DNA of 64,000 nt from contig JBGPQP010000003.1 in assembly GCA_041489155.1 (NCBI GenBank), forward strand, positions 47,744-111,743. Direction: 5' to 3'. Below, piece by piece: positions 45,501 through 54,500 of this stretch (position 1 is the first letter of the stretch; every line of letters starts with the position of its first letter). The DNA is from Candidatus Aenigmatarchaeota archaeon. GTDB taxonomy: Archaea > Aenigmatarchaeota > Aenigmatarchaeia > QMZP01 > QMZT01. Made by a program: the position numbers.

Positions 45501-48500
45501 AAGCGAACTACTCGCTGGGCAGCGTGCTCAATCACGTGCTCATGCACCAGACGGTGATAGGCCTCGAAACGCAAAAGCAGTTTGAAATTATCGACGAGAA
45601 GCCTGATGTCGTGATAGGCTGCGTTGGAGGGGGGTCGAATTTCGCCGGTCTCGCCTACCCGTTCATTGCTGAAAAGCTTGCGGGGAAAAACGATTGCGAT
45701 TTCGTCGCCGTCGAGCCGGACGTCGTCCCGAGCATGACGAAAGGCGAGTACAAGTATGACTTCGGCGACACCGGCAAGCTTACGCCGCTGCTCAAGATGT
45801 ACACGCTGGGATGCGAATTCATTCCTGACGCGATACACGCCGGCGGCCTGCGCTACCACGGTTGCGCGCCGACGCTCAGCCTGCTGAAAAAATTGGGCAT
45901 AGTAAAAGCGGTAGCCTACGGCCAGAAGGAAACGTTCGAGGCAGGCAGACTTTTCGCAAGGAGCGAGGGCATCATCCCCGCGCCTGAGACGAACTTCGCT
46001 ATCAAGGCGGCGATAGACAAGGCATTGCAGGCGAAGCAGGCGAAGGAGAATAAAACGATTGTATTCAACCTGAGCGGCCACGGCCTGCTCGATCTGCAGG
46101 GCTACCACGAGGTGCTGGACATATGACTTAAAAACGAGCAAAATAAATACTGAGCAGTTCAAATATAGAATATTAAAGAAGCTTTACAGGTGCCAGAATG
46201 AAAATCGAGATAAACCCATGGGGCTCGACGGATGTCAAGGACTACGACAAGATGTGCGAGGAGTTCGGCATCCAGCCTTTCGCGCCTCTGCTGAAGAGAA
46301 TGAAGGAGCCTCATCTACTCATGAGAAGAGGCATCGTTTTCGGCCATCGCGATTTCGACAAGATTCTCGACGCGCTGCAACGAAAAGAGAGTTACGCGAT
46401 GCTCACGGGTCTCATGCCTTCGGGCAAATTCCATCTCGGGCACAAGATCCTCGCCGAGCAGATAATCTACCACCAGCAGGTGCTCGGCGCGAAGGTGTTC
46501 ATCTGCGTCGCCGACATCGAAGCGTATAACATGCGCATCGACAACATGGAAGAGCTGAGGAGGATAGCGATAGAAGAATACCTGCTCAACTACATAGCCC
46601 TCGGCCTCGAGCCGAAGAATTGCGAGTTCTATTTCCAAAGCGCGCGTTCGAAAAACCCGGACCAAGCCAACGCTTTCTACCGCCTCAGCGGCATGGCCGC
46701 GAGAAAGGTGACGTTCAACGAGATGAAGGCCGTCTACGGAGAAATCACTCCCGGCAAGGTCATGTCGGTCATGACTCAGGTCGCGGACATCCTGCATCCG
46801 ATGCTCCCGCAGTTCGGAGGCTACAAGCATGTAGTCGTGCCTGTCGGAGTCGACCAGGACCCGCACATCCGCCTGAGCAGGGACATCGCCTCGCGCTTCT
46901 ATAAGGAATTCAAGTTCAATCTGCCAGCTTCGACTTATCATGCTTTCATAAAGGGTCTCAAGGGCGGGAAGATGTCGAGCTCTGACCCGTATTCCTACAT
47001 CGCCCTCACAGACGACCCGCAGACAGCGAAAACGAAGATAGTGAAATACGCCTTCTCCGGCGGCCGCGATACGCTTGAAGAACACAGGAAGAAGGGAGGC
47101 GTGCCCGAAGTCGACGTCTCATATCAATATCTTTATTCCCAGTTCGAGCCGGACGACAAAAAGATAAAGCAGATTTACGACGACTACAAATCCGGCAGGC
47201 TGCTTAGCGGCGAACTGAAGCAGATGCTGATAGAGAAGATGCAAGCCTTCCTCGCCGAGCACGCCAGGAAGAGGGAGCACGCAAGGAAGCAGTTAGACAA
47301 GTTCTTAAAATAAAGCCGCCTAAATATTCTATGCGGGGGTTCCCGAGTGGCCAAAGGGGCAGGACTTAAGTCTGTTTGGCTTAAGTTATGAGGTCTTCTG
47401 ACCTGTGATTAAGCTCTTTAAGAAATCCTGTGGCTTAGTGCCTTCCGGAGTTCGATTCTCCGCTCCCGCATTCTTCTTATTTTTCAAATTTCGATAAACC
47501 TTTCTCTGAAAAAGGTTCAAAATAAAAGAAAAAGACAACGAACTGCTTCGCTGTTTACTTGACCAGTTTTATGTCGATTGTTGAGACATTAAGCTGCATG
47601 TTGTTTTCTGCCTGTATCCTTTCTGTCCCTATGTCTATCGAGTGCTTGACGTTGTTGACGAACCTGTTCCTGACGACCTCCACGACATCGACTGCCCTGG
47701 AAATCGCCCTGCCTCTTGCCTTTATGTGCACTTCCTTCGCTCCCTGCGAGAACTGTGTTATCACTGCCAGCACATAAGACATCGTCGGTTTCTGCCCGAC
47801 AAACACTGTGTTGTCATCCGCTCTTGACCTCACTCTTTCAGGTCTTTCGTTTCTTGGTTCGCTCTTTGCCTCACTTCTTGCTTCCTTGGTTTCCTTCTTT
47901 TCTTCTGCCATGCTAAGCACCTCCTAAATCACTTGGTGTTTGTTTTCGCTATCGTCCGCTAGCTTTCTTGCTAGTATTGTTAATTAAGTTTATGGAAAGA
48001 GTATTTAAAAGTTAAGGTCATGCTCCGTAGAATTCTTCAAGGCTGCCAGTTATCGCTTCTCCTATCCTTTCCTGTTGCGTCGGGTCGTTGAGCAGATTGG
48101 CTTCCTGCAGGTTGCATATGAAAGCGGTTTCTATCAGCACAGCAGGCATCCTCGCATCCATGAGGACGCCGAGATCAGCGCCTCTTATGCCCCTGTCGGC
48201 GGTCCCCAGCGTGTTGACCAGCAGAGGTTGTATGTCTTCGGCGAGCTGCCTACTGCTCTGAAACATTGCATTGGAGCTGTAGCAGTTGCCTACGTTGCAT
48301 ATGTCAAGCACACGATTGTTTTCGGCGTCAGCCGAACACAAGCAATAAACAAAGGTCTCAGTTCCCACGCCATTACAGTTTTGGTCGCTGTTCGCATGTA
48401 TGCTTATGAAGATGTCCGCGTTGTTGTTATTTGCGACCGCCGTTCTCGCTGCGAGGTCAAGACTGGAGTCATCGTTTCTCGTGTATATCACCCTTGCCCC

Positions 48501-51500: not shown

Positions 51501-54500
51501 TTCTTGTTCCAGTTGCTTTCCTGCTCGATTATGGCTGCCACGAGATTTGCCGCACCGGGTATCAGGTTTTGCAGCTCGCTTGCTCCGAGCACCTCGAAGA
51601 GCACGCCGCTATGTGCGTCGGGAATGCAGCCGCCTGCCTGGGAAAACGAAGAAAAGCCGCTTATCTCGACCAGTCCGCCCGGCACCTTTTTCAGCATGAT
51701 CACCCTCACGTCTGGGAGCGCCAGCTTGCCTGTCGTCTGGTCGACCTTCACGTCGCCTATTATGGGTACCTTGTCGCCGCTTATCTTGTCGCCGGTCCCG
51801 TAATACTTGAGCTGCACGTAATAATTGCCTATGGTCTTGAGCCCGAGGCTGGAAAGGAACTTCTTTATCGCGCCGTACCTTTCTATGTTTATATCATACG
51901 TATCGTTCAGGTCCTTGATTATCGAGCCGCTGTCCATCGACGACAGGAAAGAGACGTAAGTCGCTATGTCGTTCGCTATCAGCGCCATCTTCCCCTCAGG
52001 GCTGCTCTGGAGGGTCGCCTCGGTCTTGGAGTAGAGCGTTGTGACGAGCACTCCGACGAGCAGGATTGAGCTTATAAAAACTATCATTATGCTTACGGCG
52101 AGCGAGGCTGCTTTCATGACCATATTCATGCACATTCTGTTACAGAGCGGATTACTTCATCGCTGCTGGCAGGTGACTTGAGATCTATCGTCTTTATGCC
52201 CTTGCTGTCCGTGAAGATTTGATACCTGAAGCAGTAGGATCTTCCTCCTTCCAGCACAAGGTGGTTCCCGCCCGCCGGCAGCTGGAATCTGTAGGGTATG
52301 CCGATGCAGTAAGGGTTGTCCGCGACAGCGCTTTCGGTGCTGAGCCATGCGTAATCGAAGACCACGAGTATGTGCGAGGGCTTGGTGATGTCGCATTTAA
52401 GATTGCCCAGCGAAAAGCCGCCTATCTTGCTCGCCTCCATCCAGTTGTTGGTGACGATTATCTTTTTCACGCAGCTGCCCGCTATCACCGGCTGGTATCC
52501 GCTGTCCTTGTCCTGGCCGAACTGCCTGAAAAGCGAATGGAAGGCCTCGTTGACATCGAGGCCGCATTTGTCGTACTTGATTGCGTTTATCGCATAGAGA
52601 ATCGAAGGCAGTACGAAAAGGCAAATCATCACGATTACGAAAACGAAAATAATCTTTTCCTCTATGGCCAGCGTGCCAACCCTGCTCATAAAATTATTTT
52701 ATTTCCGGAAACTTAAAAACCAATGAAGTGCCGTCAGGGTTTGAAGAGGAACGGGAATATCTTGCTAAGCACAGCAGTCCAGCCGCCTGACATGTAGACT
52801 ATTAAGGCTATTGCCCCCATGAGGAGGACGAGGCCGATCAGCACGTCCAGAAACGGTAAGGAGCCTTTTTTCATGCCAGCATCACCATCACATCACGCCC
52901 ATCAACTTCAGCGAGGCCAAGATAGCTATGACCACCATCAGCAGCGTAAGCATCTGCAGACCATGCGCCGCAATCAAGTCCCCCAGACCAAAGCCTCTCA
53001 TGATATCTTATTGGTTTTGGGATTTTAAATCCGCTTCAGAGCATAACAGAAGCGGATATGTGAAGGCTGGATATTCTAGCATTTAAGAAAGATTGTTCCA
53101 AATATTAATCATGAAAGGCCTCGTTGACGAGAACGGCAAAATACTGGTTGAGGTCCTGATGTTCATGGTATTTTTCGCCTTCGGCGCCGCGATGTTGCTC
53201 GGCGCCTCGAAGCCTGTCGCAGGCTCGCAAAACTGGGTATGCAGCATCATACCCTGCCCCTTCGACAAGACCGCTTTTTACACGCAGACCGCGAACGAGT
53301 CCGCGGAAGCGGTCTGGTGCGCGATAAACTCGGTGGCGATGGGCAAGACCGACGAATCAGAGAGATGCATAAAATACGTCGAGGGCAAGGCGCCGCAGCA
53401 GTTCGCGAAAGATGCGAATGACAAGGTCATAAAATCGACCGCGGCAACCTTCAGCTGCAGCGTGGGCAAAGTGGATAAAAAGGTGGATGAAGCAAAAGGC
53501 AGTTTTTCCTGCGTTGTGACACAGTTCGAGCTGCCGCAGGACGTCTCGAAAACCAACAAGCTATTGCCCGGCTACGGTGACCCCAAATATCTCGTCTATT
53601 TCAACGAGTTCCCCGACGGCGAAGACGAGTCTTGGTCAACTTGGGCTGCCGTAAATGTCTTATTAACAGTCATACCAGTGGGTAAAATCCCTATTATAGG
53701 CAAGTTTGCTGAAGGCATTATCATGAAACCGCTTAAACTTTTAGGGAAAGGAGTTCTCAAATTAGGGAGTAAAACAATCGAATGGGCGGGAGGAAAGCTC
53801 GCTTTGAGAGCCGCTGAGTTTGAAATAAAAGAAAACGGAGAAATTTTCGTCAAAGGAATGTTAAAATCAGCTGCAGGCAAAATTGTTGGCAACAGTGTTA
53901 TATGGTATGACGGAGCAGAAGCGGCTATTGAAAAAACATTAGTCAGCGATATCGAAAGGGCTGCGGTGAAGGAAGGAATAGAAAAGACAGGCGTCGGCAT
54001 CGCTGGCAAAACCAGATATTATGCGCTTACATGGCTGGCGAGGGCTGCCGAGAAAGGGAGGCTGAAATATTTCTCAGATGATATAACCAAGATGTGGGTC
54101 AAAGCCGCCAACAAGGCAGGCCTTCTGACCGATGATGCCGTCGAATACCTTGTTAACAACAAGATAATCGAAAACAAGGGTCTGATAGCCTTCGTTGCCG
54201 AAGAGGAGCAAAAAGTCTTGGCAAACGAATTTACTCCGCTTCTGCAGAAACTATCAAAGAGCGGAGTCGCACAGCAGGATATAGATCAGATTGTAACTGT
54301 TCTGGAAAAAAGCCTGAAATCAGGCGGCGTTTCACCCATGACAGCTCAGGACCTTATAGAGCTACAGAAGGTCGCCGCTCCCAGCCTGGCGCAGAAGCTT
54401 GTAACTGCAGGAGTGGTGAGGCCAGGCGTGACTGCTTTCATACTTACGCCCAAATACATACTCGTTGGAAACACGGTAGGAGAAGGTCTCCAGTCCATTG

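Follow-up and report, generated by a model that had tools for sequence, protein, structure and literature searches.

Described systems of surface display and murein attack

In modular type IV pilins such as PilB (vWA module) and PilC (lectin module) of Streptococcus sanguinis, a small pilin-type module, led by a class III signal peptide, bears a functional module grafted on for display, and many architectures have arisen through module exchange (PMC8179133, in the excerpts available). That survey covers bacteria through signature IPR012902, and the same excerpts name carbohydrate-binding, protein-binding and peptidase modules and no murein hydrolases. Murein-free archaea can deploy murein hydrolases of bacterial type, which they acquired through transfer and the shuffling of domains, extracellularly against bacteria, as described for Woldo and Danwoldo of Halogranum salarium. 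Enzymes of this type are soluble, Tat- or Sec-secreted combinations of a binding and a catalytic domain, with a known Sec or Tat signal in 32% (67/210); pilin-type signals go unmentioned in the accessible part of the paper, where "pilin" and "pili" occur 0 times (PMC12352652). Among DPANN archaea, GH23 (SLT) "lytic murein transglycosylases" of Woesearchaeota have been proposed to attack bacterial murein as part of a predatory ("vampiristic") lifestyle. As far as the excerpted text goes, these are single large genes with no carrier operon, amidase-esterase pair or pilin link ("pili" occurs 0 times), and the genomes reported to degrade murein do not include its one Aenigmarchaeota genome (PMC9723730). 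In Gram-negative bacteria, O-acetylation of MurNAc at C6 precludes lytic transglycosylases; the SGNH esterase Ape, encoded together with a lytic transglycosylase, removes the O-acetyl group, and this is a prerequisite for transglycosylase action (excerpts of PMC6174289).

Here we describe, from a tiny archaeon of symbiont type, an operon found across an order of Aenigmatarchaeota, in which small putative surface proteins, hereafter carriers, bear interchangeable murein-directed modules. The operon is undescribed in the literature searched. All coordinates are positions in the window, the 64,000-nucleotide stretch of contig that was analysed.

Organization of the locus

Five overlapping or abutting co-directional ORFs were called on the minus strand at 48018-52689. 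Each encodes a short basic leader with a terminal Gly or Ala, then a hydrophobic helix, in agreement with the preliminary description. Its count of five genes is incomplete, as at least one further small pilin-like gene (52734-52874), and perhaps a second (52888-53001), precedes them. Unless stated otherwise, the features below are on the minus strand.

The largest ORF, g364 (48018..50090), encodes 690 aa from the first ATG, or 688 aa if translation begins at the second, in which case the protein starts with MKG. It begins with a carrier, continues with a GDSL esterase and, past a Thr/Pro/Gly linker, ends in an Amidase_3 domain, as seen from the ORF, Pfam and a full-length homologue (P0001). 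The carrier (N-dom, residues 1-265; 49296..50090) comprises the MKG leader, the hydrophobic helix, a long helix and an alpha/beta body according to family alignments, a profile and an AlphaFold2 model; its stand-alone form, put earlier at ~270 aa, is about 250-260 aa long. The GDSL/SGNH esterase module occupies residues 279-439 (48774..49256; PF13472, E 6.1e-12) and the Amidase_3 module residues 489-685 (48036..48626; PF01520, E 4.1e-49), the latter interrupted by a Cys-rich insert (583-603). Upstream lie g365 (50081..50515; 144 aa), an "empty" carrier by alignment, Pfam and the genome census, and g366 (50502..50939; 145 aa, TTG start), whose alignment (29 unique family members) indicates a carrier type with two conserved Cys and in which no catalytic module was recognised. 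Further upstream are g367 (50945..52135; 396 aa), where Pfam, alignment and motifs delimit a carrier (about residues 1-165) and, towards the C-terminus, an SLT lytic transglycosylase (196-353; 51077-51550; Pfam E 4e-14), and g368 (52126..52689; 187 aa), a Cys-rich, carrier-type protein with 23 unique family members.

The first of the small additional ORFs (52734..52874; 46 aa) has an MKKG leader and a single hydrophobic helix, and positional counterparts of 35-78 aa exist in related loci (L003, L005, L047, L049, L051, L055, L060, L063). The second (52888..53001; 37 aa), whose MRG leader precedes a hydrophobic helix, is tentative and comes from the ORF listing of this genome only. A divergently transcribed protein of 616 aa with an MKG leader (53093..54943, plus strand) is a conserved neighbour, with weak BLAST matches to 616-1038-aa neighbours in L003, L012, L014, L059, L060, L062 and L064-L066. 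The cluster is headed, here and in relatives, by a pair of small proteins rich in Cys (106 and 104 aa; 55757..56442) with a near-invariant N-terminal hydrophobic helix, whose counterparts were recognised by eye from N-terminal sequences in the ORF lists of L003, L005, L006, L011, L016, L047, L048, L052, L055 and L057-L062. The gene alba (47555..47920; Pfam and NCBIfam), directly downstream of the operon, serves as synteny anchor.

Catalytic modules and the GDSL-amidase fusion

The assignment of GDSL and Amidase_3 domains to g364 and of an SLT domain to g367 stands: the matches to Amidase_3, Lipase_GDSL_2 (PF13472) and SLT all lie above the curated Pfam cut-offs and the catalytic motifs are intact. 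These are GDSL (280-283), GGVND (337-341) and DHLH (428-431) in the g364 esterase; DPGHGG (492-497), VEREVNL (511-517), SIHANS (563-568) and LIETAF (652-657) in its amidase; and EQES (204-207), GLMQ (281-284) and YNGG (344-347) in the g367 transglycosylase. The solved chains nearest in sequence to the esterase include a GDSL-like lipase, SGNH hydrolases and a sialate O-acetylesterase, with no named O-acetyl-murein esterase among the PDB sequence matches; the module is probably a carbohydrate (O-acetyl-murein) esterase. The amidase aligns with PDB entries 4rn7, 1jwq and 4bin, and its closest relatives outside the clade, among the 120 matches listed, are bacterial and at most 39% identical.

The full architecture is as rare as had been claimed, recurring only in P0001 among the 150 matches listed (64% identity to g364 over residues 3-689), and the pairing of GDSL with Amidase_3 is confined to g364 itself and P0001 among the 120 matches listed (2 protein clusters). 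A 64%-identical homologue of equal architecture lies in metagenome locus L007, within the same operon next to alba and trpS on a different contig, and one contig of run X1, which may be the source sample, covers 47500-49682 with zero differences. The fusion is therefore not an assembly artefact.

Conserved carriers and exchanged modules

Of the phylum's 371 genomes, 105 matched the carrier profile, namely 84 of the 91 in the order of this archaeon and 21 of the 280 outside it. The gene order ending at alba was found at 4/4 genome loci, at those metagenome loci (of L007-L016) that extend far enough upstream, and at 20 further loci; alba lies 3' of the carrier gene in most related loci, and the position between scpB and alba is constant across families of the order. 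Catalytic modules are patchier, with SLT in 45, M23 in 50 and Amidase_3 in 4 of the 91 genomes. The M23 match lies 0.34-1.2 kb upstream of the carrier gene on the same strand in 43 of the 50 M23-positive genomes, and the SLT match falls within the cluster in 32 of 45 SLT-positive genomes; in 8 of these 32 it shares the carrier's reading frame.

Comparison of individual slots revealed module swapping on homologous carriers. Across 20 loci, the g365 slot held M23 in 15, a Glucosaminidase and a Peptidase_M15_4 domain in 1 each and no module in 2; at the remaining locus the gene was not found. In the alignment the module sits in a loop before the conserved last strand of the carrier. The g367 slot held SLT, Amidase_2 (L012, E 2.7e-31) or nothing. 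In the g364 slot we found no module, PG_binding_1, SLT, PG_binding_1 with Amidase_3 (P0002, P0003), PKD with YkuD and Amidase_3 (G273/P0014), or GDSL with Amidase_3 (this genome and P0001). Apart from the PKD domain of the G273 fusion, all grafted Pfam modules act on or bind murein. The constant part of the operon is the carriers, not the enzymes, and this genome and one close relative have lost the M23 insert and acquired GDSL and Amidase_3. The operon proteins are 40-62% identical to those of L007, and the flanking Alba and TrpRS 93% and 98%; such rapid divergence is typical of interaction surfaces.

The bacterial type of the catalytic domains, together with the bacterial affinity of the amidase, might indicate a horizontally acquired bacterial or viral cassette, either a hydrolase set of the conjugation type or a lysis module, with no current archaeal role. 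Membrane-anchored multi-hydrolase proteins do occur in Gram-positive conjugation systems. We regard this origin as highly improbable in view of the constant chromosomal place, the carriers' matches to archaeal clusters only in a protein atlas search, a GC content of 0.51 within the window range of 0.41-0.56, the intact catalytic motifs, and the absence of ATPase or phage genes adjoining the locus, PHROGs not having been searched.

Are the carriers pilins?

The preliminary description assigned the N-termini to the archaeal prepilin type. In support of this, [KR][GA] directly precedes the N-terminal hydrophobic segment in 34/37 members of the carrier family, 19/22 of the g368 family and 36/37, 21/25 and 20/29 of the other three, compared with a background of 50 of the 234 genome ORFs having such a segment; about one-third of the g367 relatives lack the motif. 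The genome also encodes two Peptidase_A24 (prepilin peptidase) matches and five T2SSE ATPases above cut-off. On the other hand, none of the ATPases is on this contig, and no operon protein matched a Pfam pilin family even at E up to 10, which is a weak test because, of 6 further proteins with an obvious KG leader in the genome, just 1 reaches a pilin model's cut-off.

Structural comparison gave middling scores, too low to carry weight, that lean towards pilins for the g364 carrier and not for g365. Foldseek against the PDB returned nothing at E <= 0.001 for the carrier model (AlphaFold2; pLDDT 84.1, pTM 0.75). With VIA-align its best Z was 6.4; of 50 rows, 11 belonged to pseudopilins or type IV pilins (Z 4.1-6.1) and 9 to baseplate or sheath proteins of contractile injection systems. 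For the g365 model, PDC/Cache-type sensor domains scored best (Z 6.0) and pilins appeared in 0/50 rows. We refer to the operon proteins as pilin-like, with class-III-signal-like N-termini, and as putative pilins.

The missing pilin matches, the middling fold scores and the lack of an assembly ATPase on the contig would also suit signal-anchored ectoenzymes that are tethered to the membrane with no pilus or filament and obtain peptides and amino sugars by digesting free murein debris (necromass); the habitat is sediment, rich in wall debris, with identical pieces in runs X3-X5. We consider this unlikely, though worth keeping in mind. In each of the five families the [KR][GA] leader is conserved at a frequency far higher than in the genome at large, and carriers that were mere enzyme tethers are hard to reconcile with the conservation of carriers with no recognised enzyme (families f3 and f4, and N-dom alone) across the order. 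Furthermore, AnmK is absent and MurQ has no match above cut-off in this genome (89.65% complete), so anhydro-MurNAc released by SLT would not be usable by the known route.

Bacterial walls as the probable target

Consistent with the earlier view of an archaeon without murein, searches of the 89.65% complete genome gave 0 matches for PF00905, PF01098 and PF03033 (PBP transpeptidase, FtsW/RodA and MurG). A YkuD protein with a Tat signal (E 1.1e-19; RRGFLK leader) is encoded on contig 11, as reported before, and had been counted in a murein-cleaving set. As an L,D-transpeptidase, YkuD acts on murein but does not strictly qualify as a cleaving enzyme. YkuD and a Mur-ligase-type gene, together with the fixed place of the operon in the core genome, could be read as signs that the enzymes remodel a murein-like wall of the archaeon itself, in the manner of the sets of amidases, LytM-type enzymes and lytic transglycosylases that serve bacterial cell division. 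We give this very little credence: besides the missing synthesis genes, the Mur-ligase homologue is the single one in the genome, and the patchiness of the catalytic modules among close relatives makes a poor fit to an essential wall function.

Given intact enzymes and no murein synthesis genes, bacterial walls are the natural inferred target, and the sequence evidence points to bacteria, which had been suggested as host or prey. The singular kit then envisaged does not hold up, since conservation across the whole order makes the locus one variant of a shared operon. Available excerpts of an earlier analysis of Aenigmarchaeota argue against bacterial hosts on grounds of horizontal gene transfer (PMC8407114).

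Together, with a probability of about 0.6, we read the locus as this genome's version of an order-wide surface apparatus aimed at bacterial walls. Its parts would be small surface proteins, five to seven or more in number, each with a class-III-signal-like N-terminus, onto which murein-directed modules were grafted during evolution. Once exported, the carriers would probably be cut by the genome's prepilin peptidases, and their N-terminal helices may either anchor them or let them assemble extracellularly into a complex shaped like a short filament or a tip. The complex would here display three activities: the SLT of g367 and the SGNH esterase and MurNAc-L-Ala amidase of g364. The esterase would probably act first, stripping the O-acetyl groups from MurNAc C6 that block lytic transglycosylases; the SLT could then cleave the glycan to 1,6-anhydroMurNAc, and the amidase take off the stem peptides. 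The substrate would be the wall of bacteria that the archaeon attaches to, breaches, kills or eats.

Comparison with known systems

The amidase of g364 shares the Amidase_3 fold of the cell-division amidases AmiA, AmiB and AmiC and of the Gram-positive or phage enzymes CwlV, CwlD and CD2761 (PDB 1jwq, 7rag, 4rn7, 4bin), whose His/Glu/His/Glu positions align with its own, and scores below the NCBIfam equivalog cut-offs for CwlD (108.8 vs 221.55), AmiA (82.2 vs 400), AmiB (80.2 vs 532) and AmiC (78.8 vs 700). Its insert is located where AmiC has a longer one, which has a regulatory role; in contrast to that of AmiC, the g364 insert is Cys-rich and, by alignments and tree, specific to a small clade. 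As with Ape, a putative esterase accompanies a lytic transglycosylase, but here esterase and amidase are domains of one putative surface protein of an archaeon, and no sequence match to solved Ape was detected.

Like Woldo and Danwoldo, the operon puts bacterial-type murein hydrolases in a murein-free archaeon, whereas g364 starts with a class III-type leader and lacks a recognised binding domain. With the Woesearchaeota GH23 proteins it shares a DPANN setting and an SLT domain predicted to attack bacterial murein. Its overall plan, a class-III-type leader and a carrier bearing an exchangeable module, resembles that of the modular type IV pilins; unlike these, it is archaeal, has no pilin-family match and arms several carriers of one operon, and its filament is a putative one.

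Organization and conservation of the operon

The operon consists of five minus-strand ORFs that abut or overlap (window positions 48018-52689): g368 (187 aa, 52126-52689), g367 (396 aa, 50945-52135) with a lytic transglycosylase (SLT) domain at residues 196-353, g366 (145 aa, 50502-50939), g365 (144 aa, 50081-50515), and g364 (690 aa, 48018-50090), in which a GDSL esterase and an Amidase_3 domain follow an N-terminal carrier. The preliminary description of a five-gene set whose products begin with a short leader and a hydrophobic helix was confirmed by these ORFs and enlarged by a 46-aa ORF with an N-terminus of the same type (52734-52874, minus strand), and perhaps by a further small gene, a tentative 37-aa ORF (52888-53001, minus strand), both ahead of the five. 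The operon is flanked by alba (47555-47920), on the same side as an archaeal trpS, and by scpB a few genes away on the other side. Related loci belong to genomes of Candidatus Aenigmatarchaeota/Aenigmarchaeota. The window's genome comprises 1.13 Mb on 39 contigs and is 89.65% complete. Sequencing runs X3-X5 contain short identical pieces only, which leave the domain junctions unbridged; stretches without cover are not informative.

The carrier (residues 1-265 of g364) belongs to a family that includes stand-alone proteins of ~250-260 aa (P0008, P0020). Its profile matched 105 of 371 genomes of the phylum, 84/91 in the genome's own order and 21/280 outside it. Within the families of the order, counted without the window's genome, the matches amounted to 21/22, 1/1, 5/5, 13/14, 1/1, and 42/47. 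Gene order is conserved, with the carrier gene last and alba usually behind it, in four reference-genome loci, in the metagenome loci among L007-L016 that reach far enough upstream, and in twenty further fetched regions. For the four upstream genes, iterative searches over the related loci yielded families of 43, 29, 34, and 23 unique members. Judged by this distribution, in which ORFs are simple calls, genomes are incomplete, and absences are soft, the operon is a lineage trait and not a one-off. Relatives of the carrier were found through a representative search with the whole of g364 and through locus scans; a word-index search with the carrier alone returned 656 candidates, none at E ≤ 0.001, and a protein atlas search gave only unnamed archaeal clusters (score 0.95), a lead.

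Several neighbouring genes also encode proteins with leaders or hydrophobic helices. Two Cys-rich proteins of 106 and 104 aa (55757-56077 and 56128-56442, both minus strand) share a near-invariant N-terminal hydrophobic helix and have no Pfam match; in many relatives, one or two homologues of 100-138 aa stand at the head of the same cluster, and they could be the main structural subunit. Two ORFs on the opposite strand (55743-56150 and 56135-56779, plus strand) are probably shadows of this gene pair. Divergent from the operon lies a gene (53093-54943, plus strand) whose 616-aa product has an MKG leader and is without a Pfam match; in at least nine related loci, weakly similar proteins (616-1038 aa) whose leaders are of this type neighbour the operon. 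Between this gene and those of the small helix proteins, a 190-aa protein with a twin-arginine leader is encoded (54990-55562, minus strand; TAT_signal E 0.006, below cut-off). A gene just past scpB (57573-60140, plus strand) encodes 855 aa with Big_1 and right-handed beta-helix/NosD domains, probably another surface protein.

Catalytic modules of g364 and g367

The domain composition proposed earlier, an N-domain with GDSL and Amidase_3 in g364 and an SLT domain in g367, was borne out by Pfam matches above the cut-off for all three modules. Amidase_3 (PF01520) scored 167.4 bits against a cut-off of 27 (E 4.1e-49, residues 489-685) and covered profile positions 1-173 of 174. Its motifs DPGHGG, VEREVNL, SIHANS, and LIETAF align with the conserved His, Glu, His, and Glu positions of 4rn7 and 1jwq, which we take to be the zinc-binding His, Glu, and His and the catalytic Glu. 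Its NCBIfam scores for AmiA, AmiB, AmiC, and CwlD were all far under the equivalog cut-offs. At the site of the longer insert of AmiC, it contains a Cys-containing insert (CxC...C...C; residues 583-603, 48282-48344) that is common, with variation, to the small amidase clade of the archaeal fusions and may act in regulation or form a loop stapled by disulfides. Esterase and amidase are joined by a linker rich in Thr, Pro, and Gly (residues 456-480).

Residues 279-439 of g364 matched GDSL/SGNH (PF13472) at 46.8 bits (E 6.1e-12; cut-off, 32.9 bits), and the esterase motifs of blocks I, III, and V are intact: GDSL at 280-283 (block I Ser), GGVND at 337-341 (block III Asn), and DHLH at 428-431 (block V). 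By sequence, the nearest solved chains are a GDSL-like lipase, SGNH hydrolases, and a sialate O-acetylesterase, and Ape is named in none of the 19 PDB matches (E ≤ 0.01). Because these nearest relatives include sialate O-acetylesterase and SGNH hydrolases and not Ape, O-acetylated murein is put forward here as a hypothetical substrate.

The SLT domain of g367 (PF01464) scored 52.6 bits against a cut-off of 21.3 (E 4e-14), with the motifs EQES at 204-207, GLMQ at 281-284, and YNGG at 344-347. Between the Glu-Ser and GLMQ motifs, it has an insert of ~55-70 residues (51284-51523, about residues 205-284). Of 27 aligned g367-family members, 17 others have an aligned SLT, and all of these lack the insert; the alignment was made without L007, a metagenome contig whose ORF ends at the contig edge.

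Exchange of modules on the carriers

Within the order, SLT was detected in 45/91 genomes, M23 in 50/91, and Amidase_3 in 4/91. Linkage to the carrier gene was frequent, as read from match coordinates copied by hand. Of the 50 genomes with M23, 43 have a match 0.34-1.2 kb upstream of the carrier gene and in the same orientation; of the 45 genomes with SLT, 32 have a match within the cluster, and in 8 of these 32 it is fused in frame to the carrier.

The modules differ from slot to slot and from locus to locus. Among 20 fetched loci, the g365 slot held M23 in 15, Glucosaminidase in one, Peptidase_M15_4 in one, and nothing in two, while the gene was not found in one. The g367 slot held SLT, Amidase_2 (L012), or nothing. 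In the g364 slot, we observed no module at all, PG_binding_1, SLT, PG_binding_1 together with Amidase_3 in one protein (P0002, P0003), PKD with YkuD and Amidase_3 (P0014 of genome G273), or GDSL with Amidase_3 (the window's genome and the homologue P0001); no recognised peptidoglycan-binding domain of Pfam was found in g364 or g367. In total, at least nine Pfam families occur on four carriers, and every grafted Pfam module is murein-acting or -binding, except PKD in the G273 fusion. An alignment of the g365 family located the insertion point of the catalytic module directly before a conserved last strand, which is kept in long and short forms alike; the 144-aa g365 of the window's genome thus represents an empty carrier. 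The carriers are the constant part of the operon and the enzymes are swapped.

The G273 fusion (L059:7392-11003) joins carrier, PKD, YkuD, and Amidase_3 in a single chain of 1203 aa. YkuD, which in the window's genome is a separate protein with a Tat signal encoded elsewhere, as reported before, can therefore also ride on a carrier. The operon's SLT gene is fragmented in G351, which belongs to the same genus: its open frames are short, at 73 and 110 aa (L005:7281-7918, contig 2). This suggests module decay or an assembly error.

The esterase-amidase variant

M23 had no match anywhere in the window's genome and is present in 3/4 other genomes of its genus. M23-type EnvC/NlpD act as activators of AmiA/B/C; such a pairing of activator and amidase was rejected for this genome because of the missing M23 match. 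The variant is shared by L007, a metagenome contig from a close relative (TrpRS 98% and Alba 93% identical), in which g365 is short at 146 aa and g364 (P0001, 683 aa) carries GDSL and Amidase_3. P0001 was the sole full-length match to g364 among the best 150 of 42,362, in agreement with the single representative of the full architecture counted previously, and a re-count likewise reproduced the 0/4 for Amidase_3 in the genus. Among 120 listed matches to residues 270-690, both domains occurred only in g364 itself and P0001, and the remainder were bacterial amidases with at most 39% identity. The GDSL+Amidase_3 pair is thus limited to two protein clusters among the matches listed. This pair is rare; the operon itself is order-wide. 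The present analysis adds the esterase-amidase variant with M23 loss, the module insertion point, the order-wide census, and a single amidase clade.

In the amidase tree (FastTree, 254 domains, local support only, midpoint root), g364, P0001, P0002, and P0003 fell into one clade with a support of 98, nested in an 11-row clade with a support of 87. The latter also holds the G273 fusion, a LysM+Amidase_3 protein of L003, encoded ~8 kb upstream of the operon there, and four unnamed proteins, and includes the amidase domains of six Aenigmatarchaeota-type proteins. A single acquisition of the amidase and later shuffling inside the lineage would fit this topology. The operon proteins are 40-62% identical to those of L007 versus 93-98% for the flanking genes; between g364 and P0001, the amidase is 75% identical and carrier and esterase are 62% identical. 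Such a stronger divergence of the operon proteins than of their neighbours is as expected for interaction surfaces.

Pilin-like nature of the carriers

All five genes and the 46-aa ORF encode a short basic leader ending in Gly/Ala followed by a hydrophobic stretch. Across the five families, the leader motif is kept in 34/37 (carrier family, not counting two sequences that are hydrophobic from residue 1 onward), 36/37, 21/25, 20/29, and 19/22 members, i.e., 130/150 overall, against a genome background of 50/234 ORFs with an N-terminal hydrophobic segment. In the whole genome, 65/1225 called ORFs place a [KR][GAS] leader ahead of such a segment, and several of these encode very large proteins. 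The genome encodes two prepilin peptidase matches over cut-off (Peptidase_A24, contig 6 at 50184-50519 and contig 22 at 2682-2993) and five T2SSE-type ATPases above cut-off, none of the latter on the window's contig. Curated pilin families (Pilin_N, Class_IIIsignal, etc.) did not match the operon proteins at E up to 10; in a control, only 1/6 other obvious KG-leader proteins of the genome reached the cut-off, and these models are thus insensitive here.

The structural model of the carrier (17-row alignment, pLDDT 84.1, pTM 0.75) has two helices, the N-terminal one long, and a beta-rich body. In VIA-align, 11 of the 50 best rows were minor pseudopilins of type II secretion or type IV pilins (Z 4.1-6.1), with GspI at Z 6.1 and an rmsd of 3.7 over 70 residues, where the Z level that counts is ~8; nine rows, including the top one (Z 6.4), were baseplate or sheath proteins of contractile injection systems. 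Foldseek searches of PDB and BFVD with this model retrieved nothing at E ≤ 0.001. The model of g365 (pLDDT 74.1) was likest to PDC/Cache sensor domains (best Z 6.0), and pilins took up 0/50 rows. A complex prediction of the g364 carrier with the g367 carrier, g366, and g365 gave unspecific scores, nearly matched by a control in which chain 1 was exchanged, and speaks neither for nor against binding. We term the operon proteins 'pilin-like carriers' and regard the chances for and against true processing and assembly as about balanced.

Proposed action on bacterial walls

Motifs and Pfam matches place three intact murein-directed catalytic modules on export-type N-termini in a genome without murein synthesis genes. 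Remodelling of the cell's own wall by these enzymes was rejected, since PBP transpeptidase (PF00905), FtsW/RodA (PF01098), and MurG (PF03033) had no match in the genome at 89.65% completeness. A single Mur-ligase-type gene was found; it encodes 434 aa with Mur_ligase_M and Mur_ligase_C and lies ~2 kb left of the window (L073:520-1824, contig 3 of the same genome). A second alternative is feeding on anhydro-muropeptides by the known route; AnmK was absent and MurQ without a match above cut-off, which, with the genome incomplete, weakly favours breaching or attachment over glycan feeding.

Excerpts of PMC6174289 describe that O-acetylation of the MurNAc C6 hydroxyl blocks lytic transglycosylases, which require this hydroxyl for closing the 1,6-anhydro ring, and that the SGNH/GDSL esterase Ape lifts this block. 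By analogy, the g364 esterase would de-O-acetylate the glycan, the SLT of g367 would next cut the de-O-acetylated strands, and the g364 amidase would take off the stem peptides, with the three enzymes kept close together on carriers at the archaeal surface. A bolder reading, to which we assign a probability of roughly one in three, is that members of this order build a type IV-filament-like tip complex with at least five subunits as interchangeable sockets for murein-directed modules, with which they would dock onto bacterial walls and open them.

If this tip-complex reading is true, many of these DPANN archaea live on bacterial, not archaeal, partners, with each genome's modules tuned to the wall chemistry of its partner, e.g., O-acetylated murein. 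From the set of esterase, amidase, and transglycosylase follows a specific prediction that can be checked: the three would cooperate on O-acetylated walls. No other genomic evidence to date points so concretely to bacterial partners or prey as an operon of the core genome in which all recognisable catalytic or binding cargo is murein-directed, and with it the host question for Aenigmatarchaeota becomes testable.

Comparison with known systems

In excerpts, PMC8407114 sets bacteria aside as hosts of Aenigmarchaeota and, as previously noted, is silent on peptidoglycan, with no mention of peptidoglycan or murein. Elsewhere, GH23 genes of Woesearchaeota were interpreted as predatory (PMC9723730), bacterial pilins with grafted modules were described (PMC8179133), DPANN 'dark matter' near pilus genes was guessed to be pilins (PMC6393860), and archaea were reported to encode bacterial-type murein hydrolases, some of which kill bacteria (PMC12352652). 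A link between pilin-type carriers and murein hydrolases in archaea is absent from the excerpts of these four sources, and a search of the openly accessible literature found no report of it. As far as excerpts of PMC12352652 indicate, surveys of hydrolases based only on Sec/Tat signals and a binding-plus-catalytic architecture leave many proteins without an export route. The operon suggests a reason for this gap: some of these archaeal murein hydrolases may travel as pilin-type proteins. The modular peptidoglycan hydrolase described there combines a binding with a catalytic domain, whereas g364 and g367 have catalytic but no recognised binding domains.
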